From positions 72,297-136,296 of the forward strand of contig JBKQWF010000307.1 in assembly GCA_052139695.1 (NCBI GenBank): 64,000 nt of DNA, given 5' to 3'. Source of the DNA: Limisphaerales bacterium (GTDB lineage: Bacteria > Verrucomicrobiota > Verrucomicrobiia > Limisphaerales > Palsa-1400). Positions 6,993-44,375 of this stretch are shown one piece after another (within the stretch, counting starts at the first letter, position 1; the number at the start of each line of letters is the position of its first letter). The notes beneath the pieces are model-generated. The model did no database searches and was not told the origin of the DNA. It saw only the letters and a program-made list of their open reading frames with translations. The position numbers and the translations under genes were made by a program.

Positions 6993-7044
6993 AAACGTCT
7001 CAGGCGGCCAGCCAGGATGGGATCAGGATTCTAGGCACGATGCG

Positions 7045-8357: not shown

Positions 8358-8378
8358 ACCATCGATTCCGCCGCGGTC

Positions 8379-9958: not shown

Positions 9959-10048
9959 ACGAGAAGAGGCATGCAAGTTTAAGGATGAATCGTCAGGGAA
10001 AAATAAACTGAACCTTTTTACGCCCGGCGCCTTCCACTAGGCGTAGAG

Positions 10049-10609: not shown

Positions 10610-10986
10610 AGACCCTGAAAGAAATCCTCTTGGAGCGTAACGCAGGGATGGAAGGAAAGCTCGATGCGGTGCGCGGGCGCGCACTGGAGGCCATATCGCG
10701 GCCGAGCCCGGCGGACCGCTGGCGCGATTTGTGGAGCGGGATGCGAGGTCAGGCAACGGCCCTGGGGGCGGCCTGGGCAGTGATCTGCCTCCTTAACTGC
10801 GACCAGAACCCGAAAGCACCCAGAGCGGAGAACAAGGCTGCCCCCAGCGCCCAGGTCATCCTCTCCACCCTGCGGGAACACCGCAAGGAACTCATAGAAC
10901 TGACCGAAGCGCCGGCTGACCCCGAAGACCCGGCCGCCGCGCTAGAACAGCGGAGCGAGAAGCAAAACAGCAACGAGATCGCTTAG
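10606..10986 (+). CDS. Small single-pass membrane protein, candidate anti-sigma partner
   Basis: Its ATG overlaps the sigma-factor stop (ATGA). One predicted TM segment (ATALGAAWAVICLL). No recognisable zinc-finger anti-sigma motif. Confidence 0.45.
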   Translation: MKTLKEILLERNAGMEGKLDAVRGRALEAISRPSPADRWRDLWSGMRGQATALGAAWAVICLLNCDQNPKAPRAENKAAPSAQVILSTLREHRKELIELTEAPADPEDPAAALEQRSEKQNSNEIA

Positions 10987-11024
10987 AAGTTGTTTTGAAG
11001 CATTACCCTTAACCCACATTTTTT

Positions 11025-12662: not shown

Positions 12663-12854
12663 CAATAAAAGCGGCGCGGCAGGGAAACCAAATGGGTTAC
12701 GGCTGCGCCGAGTAAAGAATAAAACAGAGACCAAGCTGTTTCTTCCCCGCGCAGTGAGAAGAGAGCCACGGAAAACTGGGAGCACGCGACCCAACACCGT
12801 CTCCATCGCTTTTTGCGAAAGACACGCCACCAAATGCCGTGCCGGTGCGCAAAA

Positions 12855-20200: not shown

Positions 20201-21402
20201 TCGCCGGAAAACACGAGTAATTGCTTTTGGTCATCCACCAGATAAAGGTCGCCATTACTGGCTTCGAAGACCCGCTTCATCCATCGATGGGGCAGCGAGG
20301 GATTCTGGGCAAAATTGGTCATGGTGTGTCCATCAAAGAAGCCCAGGCCCGTGTCTGTAGTGATCCAAAGTCCACCCGTCCGGGAATTGCACAGGGAAAC
20401 GGCGGAGCCGTAGGGCAAACCCTCGTGGGTTGAATAGATGGGGAATTTTACGTCGGCGATCTGGCTCAGGCCGAGACGCGTGCCGACCCACAGGCTGCCT
20501 TCATGGTCTTCATAGAGACTGGTGACAGAATCGTCCACCAGGCCATCCGCCTTGCGGAGGAAAGTGAATTCACCTCCCTGGTAGCGCGCCAAACCGCCGC
20601 CCGCGGTTCCAACCCAAACGACGTTATGCCGGTCCATCAGGAGGGCATCGACCTCCCCGAGGAAGTCGAAGTTTGGTTTTGGCTGGAAACTCGAATTATA
20701 GCAGCGCAGCCTTCTTTGAGTGCCGACCCATATCTGGCCTTCGGCATCCTCCAAGACCGAACGGATGTTTTCCTTTTTGAGGGAGTCATCAGGGAAAAGA
20801 CACAGCTTTCCGGCCTGCCAGTACCATAACCCGCGCTCGACTGTTCCAATCCAAAGTCTGCCCTGAGGGCCTTCGGAAAAACTCAAATAATCACCGAGGT
20901 TTTCGCCAAAGAACGTCTGGCGAGCCCCTTCCTTTTCCATGAGCCATCGGCTCACCCCAGAATGACTTGCGGTCCAGACGGCGCCATCGGAGGCCTCAAA
21001 AGCCGAAGTGACACTCTGTGCAGCCGTCGGCCACAACTTATGGCCGTCGTAAAGACCAAAGCCGCTTTCGCCTAACGCCGCCCACAAGCCGCCGGCTTTC
21101 CCCGCGCAAAGGCTCTTTATGTCGCGGCCCGCCGTTTGCTGGCCTGCAAGAGGACATGGCTTGAATCCCATCCCGTCAAACTGGTACAAGCCCTTTTGGG
21201 TGCCCAGCCAGAGATAACCGTCCCGTGTTTGGGCCACAGAGATGATGAGGTCGGCAGGCAGTCCGTTTTGCCCCGTCCAATTCTGGCAATTGTATTGGAA
21301 GAGGGACTTTGCCGGGTCCAAGGCCTGCAACGTCCCGGTCGAAAGCAGGAAGGCGCAAATCAGCGCTTTCCGCCATCGCGGTATCTTCCGGTTCGCCTGC
21401 AT
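17239..21402 (-). CDS. Giant sensor histidine kinase with beta-propeller (Reg_prop) repeats, Y_Y_Y domain and PAS domains
   Basis: 1387 aa with a signal peptide. Many xxGxLWxGTxxGL propeller repeats, a Y_Y_Y-type Ig domain (LRYQLAGFDKEWVD...GKYSFRVQACNADGLW), a TM segment, two PAS-like regions, and the same HNVGNVLNS H-box and HATPase_c core as the downstream paralog. Confidence 0.9.
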   Translation of the reverse strand: MQANRKIPRWRKALICAFLLSTGTLQALDPAKSLFQYNCQNWTGQNGLPADLIISVAQTRDGYLWLGTQKGLYQFDGMGFKPCPLAGQQTAGRDIKSLCAGKAGGLWAALGESGFGLYDGHKLWPTAAQSVTSAFEASDGAVWTASHSGVSRWLMEKEGARQTFFGENLGDYLSFSEGPQGRLWIGTVERGLWYWQAGKLCLFPDDSLKKENIRSVLEDAEGQIWVGTQRRLRCYNSSFQPKPNFDFLGEVDALLMDRHNVVWVGTAGGGLARYQGGEFTFLRKADGLVDDSVTSLYEDHEGSLWVGTRLGLSQIADVKFPIYSTHEGLPYGSAVSLCNSRTGGLWITTDTGLGFFDGHTMTNFAQNPSLPHRWMKRVFEASNGDLYLVDDQKQLLVFSGEKVVRTYTNEEFPSALAEDAESVLLAISDQLYRVKNGQFLPYSYAGKAAPVFYWINNLYVARDGTLWVASNNGIFRLRNGEFQQWSSNEGLADNRVNWVFQDEDDALWAGLANGIARLKNNQIKNLTPEHGLPGNTVYAIVPDDRGDFWMDTSSGILKASRQDLNEFADGKLPRIEYMLFDGLESAKVAGRSFQEPVACKTADGRIWIPNLRGLVMIDPAHLMTNRVVPPVHIEKIRIDGIEVENRQVPALRGGNGQMEFHFTALSYIAPQRMKLRYQLAGFDKEWVDADGRRSVVYDNLKPGKYSFRVQACNADGLWNTTGDTFEVELPPAFFQTTWFFAICALLGAGGIGLLYRWLAQRGEKKERKLKAANDLLDSKVRLRTAELAAANSALAVEIRAGERAEEALRAEQRLLRTMIDALPMYIACIDKNGKVVFANNLVSTFFGKPLSQIEGRHFKEVMPVEICVKQQGFIANCLAGRAEPFVHEYTLPNGAKVIGQGAFAPVSDKDGTIIGAVCGLADITERRQAEEELRGKTAFFEALVESSLDGILVVGNDRRKILQNKQAIDLWQIPASLTAGNDDAEQARFVMNMAKNPEEFLDDVNHLYAHPGVKDRREVELKNGTVLDRYSSSVIGKDGRYYGRIWMFRDITARKQMELEIEQTHQQLMAASRQAGMAEVATGVLHNVGNVLNSVNVSANLVVNALRSSRAATLAKVVQLLEQHKTDLADFITRDERGRNLPAFLASLDDHLAGERKHLVEELRSLLGNIEHINEIVAVQQANAHRVGVLESVQPSEIMETAIKMNQASYHSHEVEIIRDFEKAPPLLVDKHKVLQILINLLQNAKRACSQSRGRSGRVTVRIRPQGERGIRLEVADNGIGIPPENLTRIFSHGFTTQKDGHGFGLHSGALTAQDLGGTLVAHSDGPDEGATFILELPVQLQALAAANPGRPTPSEHSNSPSSATLIKGRPASLSPAPAGTETVRAG

Positions 21403-21501: not shown

Positions 21502-22833
21502 ATGGAATTTAGCCTCCGTCCCCGGTCATCGTGCCAAATTGGCGCAGTGACGTTTCTTCTTGTCCTCGCTCACGCCGCGCAGGCCGGTGCTGCCGCGGAC
21601 GCCCTGGCGGATTATGTCCACCGCCCGGATGACTCGTTCGCGTGGAAAAAGACCGGGCAACGACAAACGAATTCGCTTCAAGTGGTCGAGTTGGATTGCG
21701 TCTCACAAACCTGGCATGGACAGCCCTGGCATCATCACTTGCTCCTGGCGCGGCCCGCCAAATTGCGCCACCCGGACATCGCCTTTCTCTTCATCACCGG
21801 CAGCGGCAAAGTGGAGCGCGAACTGGGCTTGCTGCAAACATTGGCTGATCGGGCCGGGGCCGTCGCCGCCGCGATTAGCGATGTTCCCAACCAACCACTC
21901 TATGACGGACTCAAGGAAGATGATCTCATCGCCTATACTTTTGAGCACTATCTCGAGTCAAACGACCCGACCTGGCCCTTGCTCTTTCCCATGGTGAAAT
22001 CGGCCGTGCGCGGAATGGACGCAATAACGGCCGAGGCCCAAGCCGATTTGGGCGGGCACATCACCCGTTTCCTGGTCGGAGGCGCATCGAAGCGCGGCTG
22101 GACGACCTGGCTGACAGCCGCCGTGGACAGCCGGGTTGCGGCCATCGCGCCGATGGTCATCGACATGCTGAACATGAACGCTCAGGCGCAGTGGGCGCAG
22201 CAAATGTATGGTGGGCAGAGCGAGCAGATTAACGCTTACACTAAACTCCATCTCACCGAGCGCATGGACCCGGCAATGGTGAGGTTGCGCGGCTGGGTGG
22301 ACCCGTTCAGTTACCGCGCCCGCTACACGATGCCAAAACTGCTTTTGCTCGGCACGGACGATCCTTACTGGGTGGTTGATTCGCTGCGGCATTATTGGAA
22401 TGAACTTCCCGACCCGAAACTGGTTTTTCAAACGCCGAACGCCGGGCACGACCTTGCCGGTGGCAGCGAGGCCATTCCCGTCCTGGCCGCCTTTTTTCAG
22501 ATGATTGCCGATCACCAAACAACGCCTCGCATGACCTGGAAATTCAAATCTGAGCCGCCTGAATCCGCCACCGTGACCGTGAACTTGAGCCAGCCGGCGC
22601 AAGCGTTCAAGCTCTGGACGGCTGTTTCGACCAACCGCGACTTTCGCACCAGCACGTGGTCCAGCGCGGATTTGGCGGCGCCGGATGGGACCAATGTCAC
22701 GGCACAGGTGGAAAAGCCGGAGACAGGATTCCGCGCTTATTTGGTGGAAGCGGAAATGAAGGCCTCCACCGGTGACGATTACAAACTATCCACCGAAGCG
22801 CGCGTCATTCCGGATGGGCCGCCGGGGAAATGA
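21502..22833 (+). CDS. PhoPQ-activated pathogenicity-related (PqaA-type) alpha/beta hydrolase family protein
   Basis: 443 aa with a signal peptide. The pattern YVHRPDDSFAWKK...ELDCVSQTWHGQPWHHHLLLARP...FLFITGSG matches my memory of the PhoPQ_related family. Confidence 0.6.
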   Translation: MEFSLRPRSSCQIGAVTFLLVLAHAAQAGAAADALADYVHRPDDSFAWKKTGQRQTNSLQVVELDCVSQTWHGQPWHHHLLLARPAKLRHPDIAFLFITGSGKVERELGLLQTLADRAGAVAAAISDVPNQPLYDGLKEDDLIAYTFEHYLESNDPTWPLLFPMVKSAVRGMDAITAEAQADLGGHITRFLVGGASKRGWTTWLTAAVDSRVAAIAPMVIDMLNMNAQAQWAQQMYGGQSEQINAYTKLHLTERMDPAMVRLRGWVDPFSYRARYTMPKLLLLGTDDPYWVVDSLRHYWNELPDPKLVFQTPNAGHDLAGGSEAIPVLAAFFQMIADHQTTPRMTWKFKSEPPESATVTVNLSQPAQAFKLWTAVSTNRDFRTSTWSSADLAAPDGTNVTAQVEKPETGFRAYLVEAEMKASTGDDYKLSTEARVIPDGPPGK

Positions 22834-25900: not shown

Positions 25901-26609
25901 CCGGCGAGAGGCCGTTGGCGCGGAAGGCCTGGATGGCCATATCGCATTCGTCCATCATTTCGCGCAATTGCTCGTCCGTCAGCACGCGGATTTTGGCCAC
26001 TTCATGCGACGTGCGAAAGCCATCGAAGAAATGGAGAAACGGCACGCGGGATTCCAGGGTCGCGGCGTGGGCGATGCAGGCCAAATCTTGCGCCTCCTGC
26101 ACGGAACCTGACGAAAGCATGGCAAAACCCGTTGACCGGCAAGCCATGACGTCGGAATGATCGCCAAAAATGGACAGCGCGTGCGTGGCCAGGCTGCGCG
26201 CGGTGACGTGCATGCAGAAGGGCAGCAATTCACCCGCGATTTTGTACATGTTCGGGATCATGAGCAACAAGCCTTGCGAGGCGGTGAAGGTGGTGCTCAA
26301 CGCTCCCGATTGCAACATGCCGTGAACGGCGCCCGCCGCGCCTGCTTCGGACTGCATTTCCACCAATTGCGGCACGGCGCCCCAAAGATTGGGACGGGCG
26401 GCCGCCGACCATTGATCGCACCATTCCGCCATCGGCGACGAGGGCGTGATGGGGTAAATCGGGATGGTCTCGCTCAACCGGTAGGCGATGGAGGCAACGG
26501 CTTCATTGCCGTCGAGCGTGGCAAATGGGCTTTCGACGAAATCGGTGGCGGCGACGGTGCGGACGCTCCGTTCATTTGCGCCGGCGATGGGAGTGGAAGA
26601 TGTATTCAT
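22965..26609 (-). CDS. nifJ: Pyruvate:ferredoxin (flavodoxin) oxidoreductase, single-polypeptide NifJ/PFOR type
   Basis: 1214 aa. Two ferredoxin-type clusters (CIQCNKCVFVCPHAAIR and CTGCTLCEAVCP), a TPP-binding region (GGDGWAYDIGFGGLDH) and the cluster-proximal GACSGCGET. The start lies 2 nt after the nuoN stop. Confidence 0.95.
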   Translation of the reverse strand: MNTSSTPIAGANERSVRTVAATDFVESPFATLDGNEAVASIAYRLSETIPIYPITPSSPMAEWCDQWSAAARPNLWGAVPQLVEMQSEAGAAGAVHGMLQSGALSTTFTASQGLLLMIPNMYKIAGELLPFCMHVTARSLATHALSIFGDHSDVMACRSTGFAMLSSGSVQEAQDLACIAHAATLESRVPFLHFFDGFRTSHEVAKIRVLTDEQLREMMDECDMAIQAFRANGLSPDHPRLRGTAQNPDVFFQAREACNPYYERLPLLVQDTMDRFAAVSGRKYRLFDYVGHPEADRVIIIMGSGGETAQQTAQWLSRHGEKVGVLRVRLYRPFAVEAFLEALPPTTRKIAVLDRTKEPGAIGEPLYMDVVTALRETHDTAWFGRETLVVGGRYGLSSKEFTPAMVKSVFDQLRLPKPLNHFTIGIFDDVSHKSLAWDPDFDIEADNTVRAVFFGLGADGTVGANKNSIKIIGEETDLYAQGYFVYDSKKSGAVTISHLRFGPELIQAPYLVKRANFVACHQWSFLDRYNVLDCAAERAVVLLNSPYGAADVWNRFSAETQATIIARKLRCYVIDAYQVAKATGMGGRINTIMQTCFFAISNVLPREEAIAQIKKAIRKTYGRKGDAVVQQNFAAVDQTLAALYEVELPAAVTAAPHQVSFIPEHAPDFVKRVTATMLANKGDLLPVSAFPVDGTWPTSTAKWEKRSIALEIPVWDSSICIQCNKCVFVCPHAAIRAKFYPASSLDGSPANFKAVDFRSQEWKGSKYSLQVSPEDCTGCTLCEAVCPVKSKTEPGRKALNMAPTQPLREQEHRNFEFFLNLPLPDRTRLAADVKGTQFLEPLFEFSGACSGCGETAYLKLLTQMYGDRLVIANATGCSSIYGGNLPTTPYSVNGDGRGPAWSNSLFEDNAEYGLGQRIGLEKQADFARHLARLLAPKLGDSFVDELLKAPQTNEAEIAAQRVRVKDLRQRLEKIEGMDASRLFALADSLVRKSVWIVGGDGWAYDIGFGGLDHVIAMNANVNILVLDTEVYSNTGGQQSKATPLGAAARFAVSGKATARKDLGLIAMSYGTAYVAQVALGAKDIQTVKAFEEAESYPGTSLIIAYGPCIEHGFDLGQGLEHQRVAVESGYWPLYRFDPRRVAEGKPGLRLDSAAPKLPLENLWSLERRFQMLAGKNPARGKELLEIAQADVLKKFAQYEQLSKTPAAAEALTKS

Positions 26610-26611
26610 AA

Positions 26612-28087
26612 TTAGAAAGGGGTGGAATTAAGGGCATGGGAAAGAATGCTGAGCAGCAAACCTGGCGCGCAGCCGAGAATAATAACAAGTCCCGCCAGCA
26701 GCACGATGGCCAATTGCGCCGAGAGCGACGGACGGAGCACGACCGCGGACGGGGACGGATCGGCGGCGTAAATCTGTTTGAGAATCTGCAAGTAATAGTA
26801 AAGAGAGACCGCGCTTGCGGCCACGGCCAGGATTACCAACCACAGCAAACCGAGGTTGGGTGCGGCCCCAACCGCCGCGGTGAAGAGGTAGAATTTTCCA
26901 AAGAACCCCGAAAGCGGCGGAATTCCCGCCAGGGACAGCATGAATACCAACATGCAGAAAGACAGCAACGGCGCGCGCCGGCTCAAGCCGGCGAAATCCG
27001 CCAAGTCGGCGCGGGCGTCGCTGTTTTCAACCACAGCGACGATCGCGAAGGAGCCGAGCACAGTCAGGGCGTAAGTGATGACGTAAAAGAGAAGCGGAGC
27101 CAGGCCGCGTTGCCCGGCCAGGAGCGCGATCATAGCGTAGCCGGCATGGGCGATGGCGGAATAAGCCAGCAAGCGTTTGACGTTGCGCTGCACAAGCGCG
27201 GCGAGATTGCCCGCCACCATTGAGACCACGGCCAGCGTGGCCAGCAGCGGCATCCAGCCCGGCAAGAAAGCTCCAAGAGACGCGCTGCCGCCGTTGCCGC
27301 CAAAGCCGGTGAGCAAAATTCTGGCCACGACAAAGAAGCCGGCAACCTTTGACCCCGAAGCAATGAAGGCCGCGATCGGCGTCGGCGCGCCTTGATAGAC
27401 ATCCGGGGCCCAAAAGTGGAACGGCGCCGCCGCCAGTTTAAAGGCAAACCCCACCAGGGTCATGACCAGCGCGACATAAAAAACAGGCTCCACCCCGCTC
27501 GATTGCAGTTTGACCGAGATCGCGCCCAGATCGATTTCTCCGGTGATGCCGTAGAGCAAACTAATCCCAAAGAGCGTGAAAGCCGCCGACATGCCGCCGA
27601 AGAGAAAGTACTTCAGCGCCGCCTCGGAGGAGGCCACGCTTGCTTTGTCCAACGCCGCCAGCGAATAAAGGCAAACACTGAGCAGTTCGAGCGCGGCGAA
27701 GATCATGAGAAGATTTTCCGAGCTGATCAGGAGCATCAGCCCCGCCGTCGCCAACAGGAGCAAAGCGAAGTATTCGCCAATGTGGGCGGTGAATTTCCTG
27801 GCGACGGGGAAAACCGCGCACACCCCGGCCAGCGCCAGCAGAACAACTTTAATGAGCTGGCTCAATGGGCTGGCGGAAAACATGGCCGCGCCCCGCGGCG
27901 GGGTGACCGCAAGAGTCAGCATGGCCGCAACGCAGGCCAGGCAAGTCAACATCCCGCAGGCCATCCAACGGTCGGTCAGGGTTTTGCGCCGTTTCAGGGC
28001 AAAATCGGCGGCCAGAACCACAAATGCCGACGCGGCGATGACCGCTTCGGGGAGCAGCAAATGGGCCCATTGGAAATCGGGACTCAT
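26612..28087 (-). CDS. nuoN: NADH-quinone oxidoreductase subunit N
   Basis: I place the start at the internal ATG at 28087 (MSPDFQWAHLLLPEAV), which overlaps the nuoM stop (ATGA). It is an antiporter-like 14-TM subunit and the last gene of the nuo cluster. Confidence 0.9.
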   Translation of the reverse strand: MSPDFQWAHLLLPEAVIAASAFVVLAADFALKRRKTLTDRWMACGMLTCLACVAAMLTLAVTPPRGAAMFSASPLSQLIKVVLLALAGVCAVFPVARKFTAHIGEYFALLLLATAGLMLLISSENLLMIFAALELLSVCLYSLAALDKASVASSEAALKYFLFGGMSAAFTLFGISLLYGITGEIDLGAISVKLQSSGVEPVFYVALVMTLVGFAFKLAAAPFHFWAPDVYQGAPTPIAAFIASGSKVAGFFVVARILLTGFGGNGGSASLGAFLPGWMPLLATLAVVSMVAGNLAALVQRNVKRLLAYSAIAHAGYAMIALLAGQRGLAPLLFYVITYALTVLGSFAIVAVVENSDARADLADFAGLSRRAPLLSFCMLVFMLSLAGIPPLSGFFGKFYLFTAAVGAAPNLGLLWLVILAVAASAVSLYYYLQILKQIYAADPSPSAVVLRPSLSAQLAIVLLAGLVIILGCAPGLLLSILSHALNSTPF

Positions 28088-29577
28088 GTGGTCACTCCTT
28101 TCCACAGAGGTTGCATGAGGGGGGAATTCAGCGCCGGTGTGATTAAATCCAGCAACAGTTTCGGATAAAGCCCGATCAACAAGGACGTGCCGAGAAGAAC
28201 GCAGGCGCCTGTTCGCTCGGCGATGGAAATGGGAGCCATGCGCGCCGGCGGAAGAGAGGCCGGTGTCGAATCCTCGGCGTAGAAGGCTTTCAGCAAAGCG
28301 CGCCAGGTGTAAGCCACGCCGATCAAAATCCCCACCCCGGCAAAAATCGTAAAGAGCGGGAAGGCTTGCCATGCCCCCACCAGCACCTGCATTTCCGCGA
28401 TAAAACCGCTGAAGCCCGGCAGCCCCATGGAGGCCGCTCCGGCAATCGCAAAGGTTGCGGCGGCAAAGGGCAAAGTCCGGTTGAGGTTAAGCCGTTGCAG
28501 CTCCGTTAAATCCCGGCTATGGGCGCGGTCATAAACCATCCGTCCCACCACCGCGAAGAGCAGGCCGGCGATGATGCCATGAGAGAACATTTGCAAAATC
28601 GCGCCGCTCAACCCGACCTGGGTCAAAGTCATAAAACCCAGCAAGACAAAGCCCATGTGGCTGACGCTGGAGTAGCCGATGACGAATTTGAAATCCCGTT
28701 GCACCAGCGCGACAGTCGCACCATAGACGATGCCGATGACCGCCAGCAGCGCAATCTCCTTGCGCCAGGTTTGCAGGCCAATCGGGAAAAGAGTCATGCC
28801 CACGCGCAAAGCCCCGTAAGCGCCCAACTTCATGACCACGCCGGCCAGCAGCATCGAAGCAGCCGTGGGCGCGGCCACGTGTCCGGTGGGCGCCCATGTG
28901 TGGAACGGCCAGAGACCCGCCAAAACGGCGAAGCCGACAAACACCAGGAGAAACGCCCATTTCTGAAAGGCCGCCGGGAACGGAAATTGCGCCAAAACAG
29001 GCAGATCAAAGGTGTGGCCACCGGCGACGACAAAAGCCGCGATCAGGCCGATCAACACCATCGCGCTGCCGATGAACGAATAAAGCACCAGTTTCATCGC
29101 GCCGTATTCGCGCCGGGTTGATCCCCAGCGGGCGATCAGAAAGTACTTTGGAATGATGGCCAGCTCGTAAAAGACGAAGAGGAGAAAAAGATCGAAACTG
29201 AGGAAGACGCCATAGATCGCGCCGATTAATCCAAGATAGAGCGCAAAGAATTCCTTGGTCCGGCTTTCGACGTTCCACGAAAACAAAATGCCGCAGACCG
29301 CGGCTATCCCGGTGAGCAGGACCAGTGTCACGCTGATGCCGTCCGCCGCGAGGTGATAGTGAATGCCAAGCTGCGGAATCCAGGCGGCATTGGCGATCTC
29401 CCACAATTGGCCGTTGACCGTCCCTCGTTCACATTCCACCGCGCCTGCTAGGGCCAGGGCCAAGCCGGCCAAGGCGGTCAGGAGGGCGATGACCCGCGCC
29501 GGGCGCGAAGCGAGCGAAGGCCACAGCATCAAAAGCAATGACCCGATGAAAGAAATGTAAATAGTCCAGGCAATCAT
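28084..29577 (-). CDS. nuoM: NADH-quinone oxidoreductase subunit M (copy 2)
   Basis: 497 aa with NuoM/ND4-type motifs (LAADGISVTLVLLTG, FLLFVFYELAIIPKYFLIARWGS). Confidence 0.9.
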   Translation of the reverse strand: MIAWTIYISFIGSLLLMLWPSLASRPARVIALLTALAGLALALAGAVECERGTVNGQLWEIANAAWIPQLGIHYHLAADGISVTLVLLTGIAAVCGILFSWNVESRTKEFFALYLGLIGAIYGVFLSFDLFLLFVFYELAIIPKYFLIARWGSTRREYGAMKLVLYSFIGSAMVLIGLIAAFVVAGGHTFDLPVLAQFPFPAAFQKWAFLLVFVGFAVLAGLWPFHTWAPTGHVAAPTAASMLLAGVVMKLGAYGALRVGMTLFPIGLQTWRKEIALLAVIGIVYGATVALVQRDFKFVIGYSSVSHMGFVLLGFMTLTQVGLSGAILQMFSHGIIAGLLFAVVGRMVYDRAHSRDLTELQRLNLNRTLPFAAATFAIAGAASMGLPGFSGFIAEMQVLVGAWQAFPLFTIFAGVGILIGVAYTWRALLKAFYAEDSTPASLPPARMAPISIAERTGACVLLGTSLLIGLYPKLLLDLITPALNSPLMQPLWKGVTT

Positions 29578-29580
29578 GGC

Positions 29581-31134
29581 TTAGAAGCTTTTCACCATTT
29601 GCAACACGGTCGGATTGGCCACGTCGATCAGGATTCGGGGGTAAATTCCCAGGATGAAAATGAGGACAATGGCGGGAGCGACGATCAACCGTTCCGCGGC
29701 TGTCAAATCCGTCCACCCCGCCCATTTTTTTGCCAGCGGACCGTTAAAAACCCGCTGCAGAATAGTCAAGACGAAAACCGCCGTAATCAGCAGGCCGAGC
29801 GTGGAAACGGGGGCCGCCCATGGCGCCAGCGGCAGGACGCCCTTGAAAATGAGAATCTCCCCGACAAACCCGCTCAGTCCCGGCAGTCCGAGCGAGGCAA
29901 AGAGCGTAATGCCCATCAGGCCATAGAAAACCGGCGCCACTTTTCCCAAGCCGCCAAAATCGTTCAGTCCGCGGTTGCCTCCGGCGCGTTGCTCGATCAA
30001 TCCCACGAAAAAGAAGAGACAGGCGGCGGTAATGCCATGATTGAACATTTGCACCATGACGCCGTTTAAAACCGCCGCTTTTTCGTCCGCCCATGACGCG
30101 CCCGGTGCGGTCAGTTGCGCGGCGGCGAATATTCCCATCAAGCAGTATCCAAGATGATTGATGGAAGAATAGGCGATAATCCGTTTCAGATCGGTTTGCG
30201 CGAAAGCTGCCGCGGCGGAGAAAACAATGGTGGCCACGGCCAGCCAGAGGAGCGGGGTTTGCATGGCGCGCATCGATTCCGGGAAGATCGGCAGGAGGAT
30301 GCGCAGGAACCCATACACTCCCATCTTCGACATCGCCCCCGTCAGGACCATCGACGTGCCGGTGGGCGCTTCGGCATAGGCGTCGGGCAGCCACGTATGA
30401 AACGGCATCAGGGGAACCTTGACGGCAAAGCCAAACAGGGCGCCGAGAAAGACGGCCCCGGCCAGCGCCTCTTTGGAGGTGAAGAGAGACCCGCCCAGCT
30501 TGGCAAAGAGCGCGGAACTAAGGCCGCCATCGCGCGCGAGGCCGGCAAGTTGTCCGAAGTCAAAGAGGCCTGTTGCGGCATAAACCGCCAGGAAAGCCAG
30601 CAGCAAGGTCACACTGCCCGCCAGCGTATAGACGAAGAACTGATAGGCCGCCGCGGTTCGGCGCGGCCCGCCCCAAATCTTAATCAGGAAGAAAGCGGGA
30701 ATGAGGCTCAATTCCCAGAAGAGAAACCAATGGACAAAATTGAGCGCGGTAAAAGTCCCAAAGAGGCCGCTTTCCAGAAAAAGGAGCAAGGAGAAATAGA
30801 GGCGGGCGTTGCGCTCCACGTTTCTTGAAGCCAGGATGGCAAAGGGAACCAAGAGCGCCGAGAGCAGCACCATCAGCATTCCGAGGCCGTCGATTCCCAA
30901 ATGATAATCGACCGCCAGAGACGGGATCCAGGCGGCGCGCTCGACAAACTGCATGCCGCCGTTGGAGCGGTCATAAGCGGTCCAAATCATCCCCGCCAAC
31001 GCGAGTGCCGCCAGGCTGACGGCCATGCCCAGGGACCGGGCCAGCTTCGGCCGGTCTGCGCGGACCGCCAACAGGCCAAGGCCGCCGACTAGCGGGATGA
31101 GCGTCAAAATCGTGAGAACAGGCAATTGGTTCAT
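29581..31134 (-). CDS. nuoM: NADH-quinone oxidoreductase subunit M-like (copy 1, divergent paralog)
   Basis: I place the start at ATG 31134 (MNQLPVLTIL), which overlaps the nuoL stop (ATGA). It has NuoM-type motifs (HLGIDGLGMLMVLLSALL, WFLFWELSLIPAFFLIKIWGG). It differs clearly from copy 2, so this is not an assembly duplicate. Confidence 0.85.
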   Translation of the reverse strand: MNQLPVLTILTLIPLVGGLGLLAVRADRPKLARSLGMAVSLAALALAGMIWTAYDRSNGGMQFVERAAWIPSLAVDYHLGIDGLGMLMVLLSALLVPFAILASRNVERNARLYFSLLLFLESGLFGTFTALNFVHWFLFWELSLIPAFFLIKIWGGPRRTAAAYQFFVYTLAGSVTLLLAFLAVYAATGLFDFGQLAGLARDGGLSSALFAKLGGSLFTSKEALAGAVFLGALFGFAVKVPLMPFHTWLPDAYAEAPTGTSMVLTGAMSKMGVYGFLRILLPIFPESMRAMQTPLLWLAVATIVFSAAAAFAQTDLKRIIAYSSINHLGYCLMGIFAAAQLTAPGASWADEKAAVLNGVMVQMFNHGITAACLFFFVGLIEQRAGGNRGLNDFGGLGKVAPVFYGLMGITLFASLGLPGLSGFVGEILIFKGVLPLAPWAAPVSTLGLLITAVFVLTILQRVFNGPLAKKWAGWTDLTAAERLIVAPAIVLIFILGIYPRILIDVANPTVLQMVKSF

Positions 31135-33140
31135 CCGCACCCCCAGATCAGCAAGAGCAACAATCCGCAAAAGCCCATGGCGATGGCGCGCAAGTAGCGT
31201 TGCGTTTGCCCGTTTTGGCAGCGGGCGGTCAGTTGGCCGGAGGCCCTCACGCCTTCGCAGCCGCCGTCGAAGCCCTGGTTGATCACAGCCTCATCCACTT
31301 TCCTGTCCACCTGTGAAATCAGCCGGGTCAAGCCGGCCACGAGTTTGACCGCGCCGCTCCAGATGGTGAGATCGAGCCAATTGGAAAAGCGGGCGAAAGC
31401 CGCGTTCAGCCGGATGACGGTGGCGTCGTAAAGTTCGTCAATAAACAATTTGCCGCGCAGCCAGGCAAAGAGGGTGGGTTGGAGCGTCTCCAATGGATCG
31501 GTCTCGCGGTGGGCCAGGGCGGCTTTGCCATAAATCCAGGCGCTGAGCCCTGCTCCGGCCAAAACGACGGCGGTGGAAAGGACCATGACCGGGATCTGGC
31601 CATCTTCCAGGAGTTTGGCCAAATCGAACGAAGCGCGCTCCCCGCTCAAATAGGAGGCGAACCACGGCCAAATCGGCGTTCCGGCAAATCCGACGATGAT
31701 GGCAAACACTGCCAGGACAGCGAGCGGAAGAGTCATCGCCGGCGGACTTTCGTGGGCATGAGCGTCGGTTTTTCCATAGAAGACGTAACAAATCTGGCGC
31801 GTCATATAAAAAGCGGTGAGAAAAGCCCCCGCGACGCCCAAGTAAAACGGAATCTGCGAAACCTGCCAGTGATGCGCCGAGTGCAAAATGGCGTCCTTGC
31901 TCCAAAAGCCCGAAAAGAACAGCGGGACACCGCAGAGGGCCATCGTCCCGACGGCATAGCAGGCGAAGGTCAGCGGCATCAGTTTTCGCAGGCCGCCCAT
32001 TTTGCGAATGTCCTGTTCGGCGTGGCAGCCGTGAATGACCGAGCCGGCGCCGAGAAAGAGCAAGGCTTTGAAGAAGGCGTGTGTTGTCAAGTGAAACATC
32101 CCCACGGAAACGCCGCCCATGCCCAAGCCCATCATCATGTATCCGAGCTGCGAAACCGTGGAATAGGCGAGAATGCGTTTGATGTCGTCTTGCGCCACCG
32201 CGACGCAGGCGGCAAAAACCGCGGTAATGGCGCCCACCCAGGTGACCACTTGAAGCGCCGCCGGATTGACCCCGGCGCTCATCAGCGGGTACATGCGGGC
32301 CACGAGAAATACGCCGGCCGCCACCATCGTGGCGGCGTGGATGAGGGCGCTCACGGGCGTTGGTCCTTCCATCGCGTCTGGAAGCCAAACGTGCAAAGGC
32401 AACTGCCCGGATTTGCCAATGGCGCCGAAGAAAATCAGGATGGAGATGGCGCCGGACAACGTCAGCCCGCCGACGGTCGTCAAGGCCGCTAACCGGGTAA
32501 GGGTCGATTGTTCCAGGACACCGTGGCCCCCGTCATAGAAAAGCAGCGTGCCGGACTGAGCGTAGAGCCAGAGCATGCCAAGAAGAAATCCCAGGTCGCC
32601 AATCCGCGTGGTGATAAACGCCTTCTTCGCCGCCGCCGCCGCGCTTGGTTTTTGATGCCAAAATCCGATCAACAAATACGAAGCCAGTCCAACCAGCTCC
32701 CAACAGATGAACAACAGCAGGAGACTGTTCGAGATGACAATGCCAAGCATGGCGGCGGCGAACAATCCAAGGAAGCAAAAGAAGCGCGCGAAATTCTCGT
32801 CCCCCGCCATGTAAGCGGTGCTGTAGATGAAGATGAGCAGGCCAATGAACGTCACGACCAACAGCATGATGGCGGTCAAGGGGTCCAGCACCCAGCCCAG
32901 TTGCAGCGAGCTGTTGCCGAAAGCGAACCACTCAAAATTCCGCGTGGCGCGCGCGAGCTCCGGTCCGTGGTGCAATGTTGCGGCAAAGGCGGCGCAGGAA
33001 AGAAGCAAAGAAAGGCCCAGGGACCCGATCGCCAAGGCGGCGGCTAGACGCCGTTGCGATGGCTTCAGCAGCGCGCCCAATGCGGCCCCGGCCAGCGGCA
33101 GGACCGGTATCAACCATAAATATTGGACAATGGCGTGCAT
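31131..33140 (-). CDS. nuoL: NADH-quinone oxidoreductase subunit L with extended C-terminal lateral-helix region
   Basis: 669 aa with a NuoL/ND5 N-terminal region (WELVGLASYLLIGFW). The C-terminal FIDELYD ... final TM segment is longer than I expect for canonical NuoL. Confidence 0.9.
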   Translation of the reverse strand: MHAIVQYLWLIPVLPLAGAALGALLKPSQRRLAAALAIGSLGLSLLLSCAAFAATLHHGPELARATRNFEWFAFGNSSLQLGWVLDPLTAIMLLVVTFIGLLIFIYSTAYMAGDENFARFFCFLGLFAAAMLGIVISNSLLLLFICWELVGLASYLLIGFWHQKPSAAAAAKKAFITTRIGDLGFLLGMLWLYAQSGTLLFYDGGHGVLEQSTLTRLAALTTVGGLTLSGAISILIFFGAIGKSGQLPLHVWLPDAMEGPTPVSALIHAATMVAAGVFLVARMYPLMSAGVNPAALQVVTWVGAITAVFAACVAVAQDDIKRILAYSTVSQLGYMMMGLGMGGVSVGMFHLTTHAFFKALLFLGAGSVIHGCHAEQDIRKMGGLRKLMPLTFACYAVGTMALCGVPLFFSGFWSKDAILHSAHHWQVSQIPFYLGVAGAFLTAFYMTRQICYVFYGKTDAHAHESPPAMTLPLAVLAVFAIIVGFAGTPIWPWFASYLSGERASFDLAKLLEDGQIPVMVLSTAVVLAGAGLSAWIYGKAALAHRETDPLETLQPTLFAWLRGKLFIDELYDATVIRLNAAFARFSNWLDLTIWSGAVKLVAGLTRLISQVDRKVDEAVINQGFDGGCEGVRASGQLTARCQNGQTQRYLRAIAMGFCGLLLLLIWGCG

Positions 33141-33143
33141 CTC

Positions 33144-33458
33144 TCAGCCTTTAAGCGTGTCGAATTGCTCGGTTTGGATGGTTTTGCGATGACGGTAAAT
33201 CGCAATCACCAGGGCCAGCCCAACGGCCGCTTCCGCCGCCGCGATGGCGATGGAAAAAAGAGCGAACATCACCCCCGTCAACGCTTGCGGATGGGGGCCA
33301 TAGCGCCAGAACGCGATAAAATTCACGTTGGCCGCGTTGAGCATCAATTCCAGGCCAATCAGAACAAGGATGGCGTTGCGGCGAAGGATGGCGCCCGCGA
33401 AACCAATGCTAAAGAGCGTCGCGCTGAAAACCAGGAAGGCAAAGAGCGGAGGGCTCAT
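33144..33458 (-). CDS. nuoK: NADH-quinone oxidoreductase subunit K
   Basis: 104 aa with 3 TM segments (LIGLELMLNAANVNFIAF). Confidence 0.9.
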   Translation of the reverse strand: MSPPLFAFLVFSATLFSIGFAGAILRRNAILVLIGLELMLNAANVNFIAFWRYGPHPQALTGVMFALFSIAIAAAEAAVGLALVIAIYRHRKTIQTEQFDTLKG

Positions 33459-34021
33459 CGCGGACTCTCCTCCAACTGGGGTTTGCGCCTCGGCAGGGAA
33501 CGGCCGGTTTTTGGCGGAGCCGTCCGCTTCTCATCCAGAGCGATGATGACGGCGCCCACCAGGGCCGCCGTCAATAACAGGCCAACCGTTTCCAAAGGCA
33601 GCGCGTAACGCGTCATCAATTCCTCTCCAATGTCTTTGACTGGCGCCGCGACGCGTTGGGGGGCGAGGCGTCGCAGGCTGGGACTGGTGAGAATCGGCAG
33701 AACCAAGCAGCCCAGCATCAATCCGGCGACGGCGATGCCGGCCAGCCAGCCCGGTGAAATCGCGGAGGCGCCTAATTTGATGTCTGCTCCCCGGGTCAGC
33801 AGAACCGTGAAAACAATCAAAATGGCGATGGCGCCGACATAGACGAGGATTTGCGCGAAGCCGACAAACTCCGCGTTGAGATCGAGGTAAATCAACGCCA
33901 GACCCGCGAACGCCGCCGCCGCGCTCAACGCGCAATGCACCAGGTTGCGCAAAGCCATCGCGCCGATGGCGCCAGCGAGCGTCAATGCGGCCAGGGGATA
34001 AAATGCAAGTTCAGACGGCAT
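33455..34021 (-). CDS. nuoJ: NADH-quinone oxidoreductase subunit J
   Basis: I place the start at the internal ATG at 34021 (MPSELAFYPLAALTLAGAIGAM). ND6-like pattern (ILVYVGAIAILIVFTVLL). It overlaps the nuoH 3' end by 11 nt. Confidence 0.85.
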   Translation of the reverse strand: MPSELAFYPLAALTLAGAIGAMALRNLVHCALSAAAAFAGLALIYLDLNAEFVGFAQILVYVGAIAILIVFTVLLTRGADIKLGASAISPGWLAGIAVAGLMLGCLVLPILTSPSLRRLAPQRVAAPVKDIGEELMTRYALPLETVGLLLTAALVGAVIIALDEKRTAPPKTGRSLPRRKPQLEESPR

Positions 34022-35204
34022 ACGAATAACGGCGCGGCGGCGCAGGCAACGGGACCAAGGCTCGGCCGAGGCAGACATAAGAAGGCACAAGAATGACCGC
34101 GCCGAGCAACCAGCGAATTTCCAACGCGCCGGCGAATGGCCAGGTTCGGCTCCAGTACCAAAGGGCCGCGACCAGCAGGTTGATCAGCGCGAGGGGCACG
34201 AGGAATTTCCAGGCGAAAGTCAGCAGCTGATCCAGGCGCAAGCGGGGCAAAGTGGCGCGGACCCAGATGAACAGAAAAATGAGCGTGCCAAACTTGGCCG
34301 CAAACCAAGCCCAGGAAGGTACCCATTCCAGGAAACGGAATGGCGCCTGCCAGCCGCCGAGGAAAAGCGTCACCGCCAGTCCGGTGACCGCGAATAGACC
34401 GAGATATTCACCGAGAAAAAAGAGGGCGTACTTGAAGCCGGAATATTCCGTCAGATAACCGGCAATCAACTCGGATTCGCCTTCCGGCAAATCGAAGGGC
34501 GAACGGTTGGATTCGGCCGTGGCGGCGATGAGAAAGAGTCCGAATGCGGCAAAGCCCCAGGGAGTTAACACGTTCCAGCGGGGCAGGCAGCCAGCGGTGT
34601 AGCCGGCTTGCGCCTGGACGATGTCGATCAAGGAAAGCGAGCCGGCGAGCATCAGGACCGGCACAGTCGAAAGCACCAAGGGAACCTCGTAGCTGATCAT
34701 TTGCGCGATCCCACGCATCGCTCCGAGCAGGGAATATTTATTTTGGCTCGACCAGCCCGCCATAAACACCGCCAGTTCCGAGGCTGAACCGATGGCAAAG
34801 AAAAAGAGAATCCCAGCGTCGAGGTCGATGGCGTTCATGTTGCGGCCAAAGGGCAACACCGCGAAGGAGAGCCAGATCGGGACCGTCAAAGTCAGGGGCG
34901 CCAGGAAATGCAAAAGTTTGTCCGCCGACAAGGGAACCATGTCCTCTTTGATCAGCATTTTGACTCCATCGGCCAGCGGCTGGAAGAGTCCGAATGGTCC
35001 GACGCGGTTTGGGCCGTAACGGTTCTGCATGCGGCCGAGGATTTTACGTTCGAGAATGGTGGTGAGGGCGAAACAGGAGCCGAACAGCGCCATGAGGGCG
35101 GCGATGATCAGCAGCATGGCCACGAGCGGACGGACGCCGGCGGGCGCCAATGCCACCAAACGATGGTGCAGAAAGACGAACAATTGATCGGCCGAGTAAG
35201 CCAT
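34011..35204 (-). CDS. nuoH: NADH-quinone oxidoreductase subunit H
   Basis: 397 aa with ND1 motifs (ERKILGRMQNRYGPNRVGPFGLFQPLADGVKM and AESNRSPFDLPEGESEL). Confidence 0.95.
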   Translation of the reverse strand: MAYSADQLFVFLHHRLVALAPAGVRPLVAMLLIIAALMALFGSCFALTTILERKILGRMQNRYGPNRVGPFGLFQPLADGVKMLIKEDMVPLSADKLLHFLAPLTLTVPIWLSFAVLPFGRNMNAIDLDAGILFFFAIGSASELAVFMAGWSSQNKYSLLGAMRGIAQMISYEVPLVLSTVPVLMLAGSLSLIDIVQAQAGYTAGCLPRWNVLTPWGFAAFGLFLIAATAESNRSPFDLPEGESELIAGYLTEYSGFKYALFFLGEYLGLFAVTGLAVTLFLGGWQAPFRFLEWVPSWAWFAAKFGTLIFLFIWVRATLPRLRLDQLLTFAWKFLVPLALINLLVAALWYWSRTWPFAGALEIRWLLGAVILVPSYVCLGRALVPLPAPPRRYSYAV

Positions 35205-35331
35205 AACCAGTGTGAGAATCGGGCATGGCCGGGGTTGCCGCTTCCCCTATTTTGGGAAAAGGTGCGCAGAATTTGCGAAGTCGCGTGCAGGGACGCCCAG
35301 AAGAAAACAATAACTACTCCCGCAAAATGAT

Positions 35332-35928
35332 TTACGCAACAACGGCTTTTTGAGGAACGGCGGCGCGCGCTTTCGCTTCCGCATCCGCTTTGGCTTTGGC
35401 TTCCGCTTTGCGCTGGGCTTCGGCGCGCCGCGCGTCGATTTCGGCGGCTTGGGTGGGATGGATCTTCTGGAAGTAAGTGTTCGGCTTGGCCAGTTGGGCC
35501 TTGTGCAGGAGCAAGCCGGCAAAACGTTCTCGCACAGCCAGCTCAAAGACGTTGTCCATCTTGATCGAGTCAAACGGACAAACCTCAACGCAAATGCCGC
35601 ATCCCATGCAAGTGGAAATATCGATGTCAAAAACCTTGGGTTGAAGCTGCATCTTGCCGAGGTAATCCGGTTTTTTGACCGCATCTTTGACAATGGAAAT
35701 GCATTGCGGGGGGCATTCCTGCTCGCAAATCGTGCAAGCCGTGCAGCGCAGCCCGCGAGCCGCGTCCTCGCCGTCATAGACCAGGAAGGGGATCGTGCGC
35801 GCGTTTTCGTCCGGGCGGAGTTTCTCTTCCGGATACTGTACGGTTGTCAACCGTTCCGGCTGGTAATAACTGCCGGCGAAATTTCGACCGGTTTCGATCA
35901 GTCCTTTAATGATGCCTGTGCCTAACAT
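35332..35928 (-). CDS. nuoI: NADH-quinone oxidoreductase subunit I (2x[4Fe-4S]) with a Lys/Ala/Glu-rich C-terminal tail
   Basis: CTACTICEQECP and CMGCGICVEVCP cluster motifs. The last roughly 45 residues are AAEIDARRAEAQRKAEAKAKADAEAKARAAVPQKAVVA. The start shares 1 nt with the nuoD stop. Confidence 0.9.
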   Translation of the reverse strand: MLGTGIIKGLIETGRNFAGSYYQPERLTTVQYPEEKLRPDENARTIPFLVYDGEDAARGLRCTACTICEQECPPQCISIVKDAVKKPDYLGKMQLQPKVFDIDISTCMGCGICVEVCPFDSIKMDNVFELAVRERFAGLLLHKAQLAKPNTYFQKIHPTQAAEIDARRAEAQRKAEAKAKADAEAKARAAVPQKAVVA

Positions 35929-37139
35929 TAGCGATCCACTTCCCCCAGGACAATATCAACACTGCCCAGGATAACCACGGCGTCGGCAATCGTATGGCCC
36001 ACGCACATGTCTTCGAGAATAGTCAAATTAATCAAGCTCGGCGGACGCACCCGGTAACGGTACGGATGAGGGCCGCCATCACTGATGAGATAAAAGCCAA
36101 GCTCGCCTTTGGGCGCTTCGATCCGGCCGTAGGCCTCGCCGGCCTTCGGCCGCAAGTTGCGCAGTTTGGCCTTCGGGTCCAGGATCGGCCCGGCGGGAAT
36201 TTCGCCCAAGGCCTGCCGGAGAATGCCGAGGCATTCCCGCGCTTCCAGGATGCGGACCATGTAGCGATCAAACACGTCGCCATGTGCGCCCAGCGGGACC
36301 CGGAACTGGAAACGGTCATAGATGCCGTACTTGTCCACTTTGCGAACATCATAATTGACGCCGCTGGCCCGGAGCATCGGGCCGGTGACGCCCGCATTCA
36401 CGGCCAATTGCGGCGGGAGCACACCCACGTTTTTCGTCCGCGCGTGCAGAATTTCATTGCCGGTGATCAACCCTTCGAATTCGTCCAGAAAGGGCTCGTA
36501 ATTTGTCGTGACCCGCCAGGCCTTATCGAGCCAGCCCTCGGGCAGATCGCAGCGGCATCCGCCAAAGCGCAGGTAATTGTACATCATGCGCGCGCCGGTG
36601 AGGGATTCGAATAAATCGAGGATTTTTTCCCGTTCGCGAAACGCATACATCATCGGTGTGCCGAGCGCGCCCATGTCCTGCAGCAAAAAGCCCGCCAGGC
36701 AAGTGTGATTGAAGAGGCGGGTCAATTCGCTGACAATGACGCGGATGTATTCGGCCCGTTCCGGGACCGCCAAACCGGTCAGTTTTTCGACGCTGAGGAC
36801 GTAGCCCCAGTTGTTTGTCATGGAGCAAATGTAGTCGAGGCGATCGGTGTAGGGAATGGAGCCGAGGTAACTTGTTTTCTCCGCGATTTTCTCATGGTTG
36901 CGGTGCAAGTAGCCGAAAACGGGCTTTAATTTGACCACCGTTTCCCCGTCGAGCACCACGTTCATGCGGAAGACGCCGTGAGTCGAAGGATGGTGCGGGC
37001 CCATCGCCACTTCCAGCAGATCGTTGGCGCCGTCGGGAGCGTCGGACGAGGACAGCGTCCAGCGCGGCTGGACCGGCATCTCCAACGTCTCCTCAGGCTG
37101 GACAGGTTCCACGCTCTCCATAACTTCAGGCACAGTCAT
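35928..37139 (-). CDS. nuoD: NADH-quinone oxidoreductase subunit D (49-kDa)
   Basis: 403 aa with MGPHHPSTHGVFRM and GYLHRNHEKIAE motifs. Confidence 0.95.
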   Translation of the reverse strand: MTVPEVMESVEPVQPEETLEMPVQPRWTLSSSDAPDGANDLLEVAMGPHHPSTHGVFRMNVVLDGETVVKLKPVFGYLHRNHEKIAEKTSYLGSIPYTDRLDYICSMTNNWGYVLSVEKLTGLAVPERAEYIRVIVSELTRLFNHTCLAGFLLQDMGALGTPMMYAFREREKILDLFESLTGARMMYNYLRFGGCRCDLPEGWLDKAWRVTTNYEPFLDEFEGLITGNEILHARTKNVGVLPPQLAVNAGVTGPMLRASGVNYDVRKVDKYGIYDRFQFRVPLGAHGDVFDRYMVRILEARECLGILRQALGEIPAGPILDPKAKLRNLRPKAGEAYGRIEAPKGELGFYLISDGGPHPYRYRVRPPSLINLTILEDMCVGHTIADAVVILGSVDIVLGEVDR

Positions 37140-39116: not shown

Positions 39117-39659
39117 CTGCCTAATAGATAATCGGACAGAGGCGTCTCGACTTCCCATTGGTTGCTATTTGCACCCCATTTTTTGGTATGTTGGTCAATT
39201 CTCTCCTCTGGCGGGAAGAGGCGGCGCCAAGCCCCCACCCTGCATCGCCAGGGAAAAGAGGTCGGTGAAAGGCGATCCCGGCTAACCACAACTGGCCGAG
39301 GGCCTGGCAATTAATGGCGCATCCCTGCCGGAAGGGGCGGCGCACCCCCGGGAAGCGGCCTTTTGGGTCCGCCGCGGAGCCTCGTAGAATGTGCTCCAAC
39401 CTTTTTCTGGCCTCTTCTTTCCCAAGGGAAGGCCAGAGATTCGCAATCCGTGTGTAGTTCATCATGGTCTCATCACCGATACTTATCCGCGATGAACGAT
39501 CGGACAGGAAGGCGAATACGAGGGAAAAACGGGCAAATGGCGCGCTCCAAGTCCGGCGTTTCGCAAAAGATGAGGAACAAATGGCAATATCGGTGGAGCC
39601 ATTTCCGCCGTCACGCCTAATAATACGGACATCAATAACCAGTGACATCACTTGGAAAT

Positions 39660-44325: not shown

Positions 44326-44375
44326 GGCCGGAATGCAAATCTCACGATCCTATTCATCGACAATTGCTCCAACGC

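Follow-up and report, generated by a model that had tools for sequence, protein, structure and literature searches.

A 64,000-nucleotide stretch of a contig from a Limisphaerales bacterium (JBKQWF010000307.1; the whole stretch is hereafter the window) carries a nuo operon whose product is very probably a quinone reductase of the complex I type that lacks the N-module and has four antiporter-like subunits. This is the '2M' architecture, in which NuoM is duplicated and NuoL is lengthened (PMC9040806, PMC6606698, PMC7117926 and PMC7419157). The genes lie on the minus strand, from about 38.8 to 23.0 kb, in the order (feoA-like)-nuoA-B-C-D-I-H-J-K-L-M1-M2-N-PFOR, the last of these encoding a pyruvate:ferredoxin oxidoreductase (PFOR), and they are tightly packed, with intergenic gaps of -11 to +20 nucleotides (nt) except for the 127 nt that separate nuoI from nuoH. 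ATGA overlaps join the start codon of nuoM1 to the stop codon of nuoL and that of nuoN to the stop codon of nuoM2, and the gene calls used here agree with those on the public contig, which belongs to a Verrucomicrobiota genome assembled from a metagenome (GCA_052325445.1). Homologues of nuoE, nuoF and nuoG are absent from the cluster, from the open reading frames (ORFs) of the entire 64 kb window and from 80 related loci inspected with flanks of up to 10 kb. With two M genes between nuoL and nuoN, a 26-residue insertion in NuoL and no nuoEFG, the operon is, as far as sequence can tell, a 2M complex I in every feature by which one is recognised, which bears out the interpretation offered in an earlier note on this DNA.

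The comparisons between loci rest on these 80, a selection from at least 584 species genomes. When each species was represented by a single genome, two M2 peptide patterns gave at least 600 matches, and 584 of those listed were confirmed as relatives. Every kept locus has the order A-B-C-D-I-H-J-K-L-M1-M2-N wherever its contig allows the order to be followed. The NuoL encoded in the window is lengthened in its lateral (HL, or transverse) helix, as the earlier note had claimed. From D572, the aspartate that closes the FIDELYD motif, to R648, where the last transmembrane (TM) helix begins, there are 75 residues rather than the roughly 85 counted in that note, as against 45-46 in E. coli and 49-50 in single-M relatives. 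The note had named the absence of an insertion at this place as a result that would speak against its reading, and alignment with the NuoLs of three single-M operons (loci L087, L090 and L091) shows one clean block of 26 columns that is missing from them. The 75-residue spacing recurs in all 120 of the closest NuoL homologues and in each of the 66 full-length NuoLs from two-M loci, and the insertion tracks the number of M genes, being present in 66 of 66 two-M loci and absent from the three aligned single-M relatives (3/3).

As an alpha-helix, the 26 extra residues would span about 39 Å. They bear a second invariant aspartate, D616, which lies 26 residues past D590; the former is conserved in 120 and the latter in 119 of 120 NuoL homologues. 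D590 stands at +19 from the ELY anchor, where E. coli has its M-docking aspartate, D563, at +18 and Paracoccus the equivalent D648 at +20. This aspartate of the transverse helix bonds a histidine on TM7 and a tyrosine on TM10 of NuoM (PMC9802314), and these docking partners are kept in both M subunits of the window (H246 and Y322 in M1, H226 and Y302 in M2). From this pattern we infer that D590 docks M1 and that D616 docks M2. An AlphaFold2 (AF2) model of NuoL has helices at residues 566-627 and 629-641, an almost unbroken run, followed by one at 645-668, with a mean pLDDT (the per-residue confidence score) of 72.5 that is lower in the helix part; its top structural matches are cyanobacterial NdhF1 chains. 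The earlier note had also perceived an internal repeat in this region. Two copies of a motif do exist, LDLTIW at residue 589 and VDEAVIN at 615; the distance between them is exactly 26 residues, but in register the second departs from the proposed D-x-x-[IV]-x-x-G-x-V pattern. When the family profile is compared with itself, an offset of 26 ranks first with a z-score of about 2.8 and an offset of 22 is nearly its equal, which falls short of a statistically solid tandem duplication within HL, and we therefore speak of an insertion with a second Asp motif. The co-occurrence of insertion and second M gene gives unusually clean comparative support to the rule that one extra M comes with one extra 26-residue helix module carrying a docking aspartate of its own.

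It might be argued that M1 and M2 are alternative subunits, comparable to the cyanobacterial NdhD1-D4, and that the operon specifies two complexes with three pumps each instead of one with four. Paralogues of NdhD and NdhF are indeed swapped in cyanobacterial NDH-1, and among solved structures the NuoL and NuoN of the window are nearest to cyanobacterial subunits. However, the operon has a single nuoL and a single nuoN, and both of its M genes are translationally coupled within it. The fixed length of the HL insertion in two-M NuoLs and its absence from single-M relatives, the two invariant aspartates 26 residues apart and the docking His and Tyr kept in both M subunits likewise speak against such a swap, and we regard alternative subunits as very unlikely.

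The earlier note placed the two nuoM genes correctly and called them divergent, and this too is borne out: both products score above the TIGR01972 cut-off, they are only 32% identical to each other, and each is 33-34% identical to E. coli NuoM. Aligned with E. coli L, M and N, the subunits NuoL, M1 and NuoN retain all charged residues of the central axis (E148, K243, H268, K415 and D416 in NuoL; the complete set of E141, K239, K270, H327, H366 and E426 in M1; E134, K217, K247 and K398 in NuoN). M2, aligned with the NuoMs of E. coli and Paracoccus, retains E138, K250, H307, H333 and E395, but it has Leu219 (codon 28921-28923) at the site of the TM7 lysine (K234 in E. coli, K232 in Paracoccus) and Ala229 at the site of a gating leucine (L242 in Paracoccus), reading WAPTGH where WLPDAH is expected. 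Since the alignment is free of gaps through TM7, the assignment of Leu219 is not an alignment artefact. Measured against the axis set of NuoM/ND4 (GluTM5, LysTM7, LysTM8, two His and GluTM12), M1 is complete and M2 departs at LysTM7 only; by this yardstick M2 belongs among the NuoM homologues without qualifying as a canonical pump module. Leucine occupies the site in 120 of 120 close M2 homologues and also in 80 of 80 genome loci, a count that is biased in that one of the two search patterns contained this very leucine. The lysine is present in every solved NuoM, ND4 and NdhD chain.

The absence of one hallmark lysine could be taken to mean that M2 is a decaying duplicate and that the insertion in NuoL is an unrelated, lineage-specific loop. 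The earlier note had itself stated that a NuoM copy without the conserved Lys/Glu channel residues and of degenerate appearance would count against it, and M2 does lack the TM7 lysine. Yet M2 does not look degenerate. Its close homologues are 70-78% identical, as are those of NuoL, and carry the label Verrucomicrobiota; their TM7 region is nearly invariant. Across the two-M loci the median identity of M2 (67%) exceeds that of NuoL (61%), M1 (60%) and NuoN (52%), so M2 is the best conserved of the four antiporter-like subunits, and none of the 80 loci has a broken M2 reading frame. The AF2 model of M2 is confident (pLDDT 79.9; predicted TM-score, pTM, 0.86) and superposes on solved NuoM and NdhD chains with TM-scores of 0.87-0.89 and a root-mean-square deviation of 2.7-2.8 Å, in keeping with the 14-TM antiporter fold of NuoM/ND4. 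A degenerate M2 is ruled out by the invariance of Leu219 and the TM7 motif, the high conservation and the confident fold, and the insertion in NuoL co-varies with M gene number. Taken as a whole, decay is hardly credible.

A more substantial alternative is that M2 is assembled as a non-pumping, or differently working, spacer or relay, such that the enzyme moves no more protons than canonical complex I does. The replacement of the TM7 lysine by leucine and of the gating leucine by alanine in every M2 examined speaks for it, as does the lysine in all solved counterparts. In Paracoccus Nqo13, catalysis was abolished by each of the exchanges K232Q, E141Q and E405Q, and L242A too proved disruptive (PMC9802314). 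However, GluTM5, LysTM8, both histidines and GluTM12 are invariant in M2, the subunit is the most conserved of its kind in the operon, and a lysine-less M is the sole M of certain 11-subunit complexes, where it is presumably functional. It is also possible that another residue stands in for the missing lysine: K144, on TM5 (IPKYFLI) and six residues past GluTM5, is invariant and specific to M2, where canonical NuoM has Met or Ala. K144 is absent, though, from most other lysine-less NuoM subclades, with Met in 119 of 119 proteins including those of Moorella and cable bacteria. On balance we consider a spacer or relay role possible, though less likely than not.

NuoMs without the TM7 lysine occur well beyond the 2M operons. 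When cluster representatives were searched exhaustively, the best 150 matches included about 30 full-length and diverse NuoM-like proteins with L, I, F, S, W or E at the site; these proteins share PDGH for PDAH, Leu for a Phe that is otherwise 99% conserved, and Arg for Trp. In a neighbour-joining tree they form one clade with M2, separate from all Lys-bearing NuoM, and M1 groups with or near the Lys-bearing clade. The phylogeny puts M1 and M2 in separate clades, each with a bootstrap of 100, and M1 joins the lysine-less group in 0 of 100 replicates. That M1 is a recent duplicate of M2 is ruled out by this result and by the 32% identity of the two. Each of the 119 proteins recovered with a profile of the lysine-less sequences has Leu or Ile at the site; the hosts named for them include Moorella thermoacetica, Clostridium pasteurianum, Thermanaeromonas, Candidatus Electrothrix and Electronema, Rhodopirellula, Oligoflexia, SAR324 and Chloroflexota. 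All six genomic contexts that were sampled (L087; L090, from Selenomonadaceae; L091; L092, from Moorella; L093, from Electrothrix; L094, from Rhodopirellula) are nuoABCDHIJKLMN operons with a single, lysine-less M and without nuoEFG.

The simplest reading of these contexts would be that the lysine-less M beside NuoN is the resident M of N-module-less complexes, and that a Lys-bearing M1 and one HL module were added between L and M. We put forward only tentatively the fuller proposal that M2 is an orthologue of a widespread and ancient NuoM variant, which would have lost the TM7 lysine of the Glu-Lys switch along with the gating leucine and which is the sole M in the 11-subunit complexes of Moorella, C. 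pasteurianum, cable bacteria and Selenomonadaceae. The 2M enzyme would then have arisen by insertion of M1 and the 26-residue module between L and that M. The history could also have run the other way, the single-M lineages having lost M1 and the 26 residues. An interrupted, distant two-M arrangement was seen in one further locus (L089, GCA_041300525.1, positions 6777-13006), where a ParE-toxin cassette comes after an M1-like gene with an N-terminal truncation; next stand a gene for a 316-residue product, a lysine-less M, N and, directly after it, ATP synthase genes. Two of the single-M operons have redox enzymes directly upstream, namely a two-subunit 2-oxoacid:ferredoxin oxidoreductase in L087 (1-2668) and an NfnAB/GltD-like pair in L094 (1-2325); these are independent cases of ferredoxin-linked enzymes beside N-module-less nuo operons. 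In the later literature that cites the founding description by Chadwick et al. (2018), we found no mention of a lysine-less M2 or of such an origin for it.

If M2 does descend from such an M, and if modules without the lysine do not pump, or do so in another way, the 2M enzymes of this clade would regain four H+ per 2 e- rather than achieve five. Thousands of natural, working 'K232L' variants of complex I would then exist, some of them in cultured hosts, with which the indispensability of the Glu-Lys ion pair could be probed. In these operons the M nearest to NuoN naturally lacks a lysine that mutagenesis has scored as essential, which has a bearing on models of long-range coupling and on the assumed 5 H+. 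The lysine-less M2, together with its kinship to the M of 11-subunit complexes from anaerobes, might be the one point of this operon for specialists in complex I.

Without NuoEFG, electrons would enter at NuoI from a low-potential carrier. As proposed for the 11-subunit enzyme of D. hafniense, the likely co-transcribed PFOR may in this lineage supply that carrier in the form of reduced ferredoxin or flavodoxin, and the electrons would then pass to quinone and drive proton translocation. The membrane arm would be ordered L-M1-M2-N, with the lengthened HL clamping all four subunits, M1 held by D590 and M2 by D616. M1 would be a canonical pump module and M2 a module of the lysine-less NuoM type, the enzyme amounting to an 11-subunit-type complex into which a canonical M and one helix module have been inserted between L and M, and its stoichiometry could be 5 H+ per 2 e- or lower. 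The linkage to PFOR, noted earlier, stands for the window, where the gene starts 2 nt past the nuoN stop codon and is likely the last of the operon; its TIGR02176 match spans residues 29-1202, and the Pfam domains POR_N, POR, EKR, PFOR_II and TPP_enzyme_C complete the set of the NifJ/YdbK type. As a feature of the family the linkage fails, being confined to the window and three to four close relatives. The NuoI-like subunit is itself divergent: its top NCBIfam match is NuoI, at 74 bits against a cut-off of 113, and it remains under every NCBIfam NuoI cut-off. Its Lys/Ala-rich C-terminal tail (AEAQRKAEAKAKADAEAKARAA) could offer a docking surface for an acidic ferredoxin. In all two-M loci nuoI precedes nuoH, the opposite of the usual H-I order. 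Cyanobacterial NDH-1 docks ferredoxin through the SH3-like subunit NdhS. The FeoA-domain protein, whose gene runs in the same direction as nuoA, 20 nt ahead of it, and is possibly the first of the operon, could by analogy be an adaptor comparable to NdhS.

Electrons could also flow in the reverse direction, as proposed for Nitrospira, although we think this unlikely. PFOR is a reversible enzyme, which would suit such a role, whereas the carriers of the operon are mostly soil and freshwater Verrucomicrobiota and Acidobacteriaceae, that is, mainly heterotrophs, and no carbon-fixation genes were seen adjoining the operon. The PFOR is moreover of the single-polypeptide NifJ/YdbK type. Complex I is itself reversible (PMC9802314), and a reverse role has been proposed for the 2M-type complexes of Nitrospira and Candidatus Manganitrophus (PMC9040806, PMC6606698); work on the enzyme of D. 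hafniense, however, favours a flow from pyruvate via ferredoxin to the complex (PMC11238625).

Several points weigh against a ferredoxin-fed enzyme with four working pumps. The donor is deduced from two things, the absence of nuoEFG from the window and the adjacency of PFOR, and a PFOR gene follows nuoN only in the window, in the loci L009, L024 and L027, and perhaps in L011. The nuoEFG genes could reside elsewhere in the genome, and Acidobacteria often carry a second operon with EFG. Because M2 lacks the TM7 lysine, the replacement of which by glutamine abolishes catalysis in Paracoccus Nqo13, a fully canonical fifth pumping site is doubtful. The energy available from ferredoxin to menaquinone, about 70-80 kJ per 2 e-, is marginal for 5 H+ at full proton-motive force. 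The clade that unites M2 with the other lysine-less NuoMs has a bootstrap of 36/100, and the confidence of the NuoL model is lowest within parts of the lateral helix. A search for an electron-input gene conserved beside the operon throughout the family found none; what follows nuoN is heterogeneous, and a FeoA-domain gene precedes nuoA among the relatives only in L009 and L027.

The 80 loci come from Verrucomicrobiota (Limisphaerales, Pedosphaera and similar) and from Acidobacteriaceae, with Granulicella sp. S156 and Paracidobacterium acidisoli 4G-K13 among the cultured carriers. The 2M operon is very common in the Verrucomicrobiota and Acidobacteriaceae of soils, and the window adds one more case of a published architecture. 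A separate observation concerns locus L004 (contig_1519 of ERZ25039534, 6.03 Mb), in which nuoH-J-K-L (660 residues)-M1 gives way to unrelated genes and a gene for a phage terminase closely precedes nuoH. This operon appears to be split, and M2 and N presumably lie at another place in that genome.

The features of the operon are collected in the table. Of its remaining subunits, NuoD has T. thermophilus Nqo4 and cyanobacterial NdhH as its best solved relatives, and NuoL has cyanobacterial NdhF1. Scans for promoters and terminators gave nothing beyond the expectation from shuffled sequence.

Table. Coordinates in the window of the genes and helix features of the 2M complex I operon (lengths in amino acids, aa; bits are profile scores; E, E-value)
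Feature	Coordinates	Strand	Basis
FeoA-domain (SH3-like) protein, 106 aa	38796..39116	-	Pfam PF04023, E 7.7e-10; gene call on source contig
nuoA, 123 aa	38404..38775	-	PF00507, E 3.2e-27; gene call on source contig
nuoB, 202 aa	37778..38386	-	PF01058
nuoC, 211 aa	37136..37771	-	PF00329
nuoD, 403 aa	35928..37139	-	PF00346
nuoI-like 2x[4Fe-4S] subunit, 198 aa	35332..35928	-	Fer4 families; two CxxCxxCxxxCP motifs
nuoH, 397 aa	34011..35204	-	PF00146, E 3e-114
nuoJ, 188 aa	33455..34021	-	PF00499; start per source-contig gene call
nuoK, 104 aa	33144..33458	-	PF00420
nuoL, 669 aa	31131..33140	-	NF005141, 658 bits vs cut-off 556
NuoL lateral (HL/transverse) helix, residues ~566-641, then TM16 645-668	31218..31445	-	AF2 model
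26-residue HL insertion, residues 605-630, TRLISQVDRKVDEAVINQGFDGGCEG	31251..31328	-	26-column gap vs single-M NuoL
nuoM1, 517 aa, canonical-type NuoM	29581..31134	-	TIGR01972, 483.6 bits vs cut-off 263.8; PF00361
nuoM2, 497 aa, NuoM paralogue	28084..29577	-	TIGR01972, 436.8 bits vs cut-off 263.8; PF00361
nuoN, 491 aa	26612..28087	-	TIGR01770, 388.9 bits vs 332.6; start per source-contig gene call
PFOR, single-polypeptide pyruvate:ferredoxin/flavodoxin oxidoreductase, 1214 aa	22965..26609	-	TIGR02176, 1727 bits vs 911

On the plus strand, AT skew is strongly positive (0.17-0.27) over the membrane-subunit genes (26000-36000) and near zero elsewhere, as expected for the compositional footprint of T-rich hydrophobic codons on the minus coding strand, without any separate feature. 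Between the FeoA-domain gene and the divergently oriented hemA (39642-40802), the public record calls a gene on the minus strand (39121-39648, 175 aa). Its product matches no family and is rich in Arg and Ser and of low complexity, and the ORF is probably not coding but a leader or promoter region that the operon and hemA share. Just beyond hemA lie two plus-strand genes (40970-43270 and 44322-45956) for large multihaem c-type cytochromes with MtrC/OmcA-like and cytochrome c7/c554 domains, whose proximity to the complex I operon hints at extracellular or periplasmic electron transfer. On the other side of the operon, two giant minus-strand ORFs stand in tandem (12855-17234 and 17239-21402, of 1459 and 1387 aa). 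The 1387-residue product has Reg_prop beta-propeller, Y_Y_Y, PAS and HATPase domains and is a sensor histidine kinase, and a gene for a homologue of PhoPQ-activated pathogenicity-related protein (21502-22833) adjoins the pair.

The 2M complex I was reportedly first described by Chadwick, Hemp, Fischer and Orphan in 2018 (ISME J 12:2668), with Nitrospira CI_1 as an example. Later papers report a 26-residue HL insertion in the NuoL of the Nitrospira 2M complex (PMC9040806, PMC6606698) and several independent 2M clades, Nitrospira falling in 'clade 3' and Chloroflexi having nuoLM1M2N (PMC9040806, PMC6606698, PMC7117926, PMC7419157). In these accounts NuoE/F are often absent and a link to ferredoxin has been proposed (PMC9040806, PMC6606698, PMC7117926), and a fifth H+ per 2 e- is a hypothesis of that literature (PMC6606698, PMC7117926). 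The operon in the window has in common with these systems the adjacent second nuoM and the 26-residue helix insertion in NuoL, and NuoE/F are absent in several 2M clades as they are here; it differs in the I-before-H order, in the lack of nuoG and, in its own sub-lineage only, in the PFOR gene at the end of the operon. Complex_I_3 of Candidatus Manganitrophus, which has five pumping subunits, uses the same device of a 26-residue helix extension for each added M (PMC9040806), but two MrpD-like subunits replace NuoL there and the host lineage is another.

The 11-subunit enzymes of the D. hafniense and Moorella thermoacetica type are likewise without an N-module, and for D. hafniense PFOR and ferredoxin have been proposed as the donors (PMC11238625). 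At the site of the TM7 lysine their single NuoM carries Leu or Ile, and it has an SPDGH motif, the signature of M2; but they have one M only, a NuoL without the 26-residue insertion and the order H-I. The cyanobacterial and chloroplast NDH-1L (6HUM, 6KHJ) also lacks NuoEFG, depends on ferredoxin and provides the best solved relatives of NuoL and NuoN; it differs in having a single NdhD with the TM7 lysine, and in its NdhS, NdhV and NdhO, for which the window has no identified counterpart. With the canonical 14-subunit complex I of E. coli, T. thermophilus and P. denitrificans the operon shares all 11 core subunits of the membrane arm and Q-module, and it departs from that enzyme in the absence of NuoEFG, in an extra M, in an HL that exceeds that of E. 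coli by 29-30 residues, and in an M2 without the TM7 lysine.

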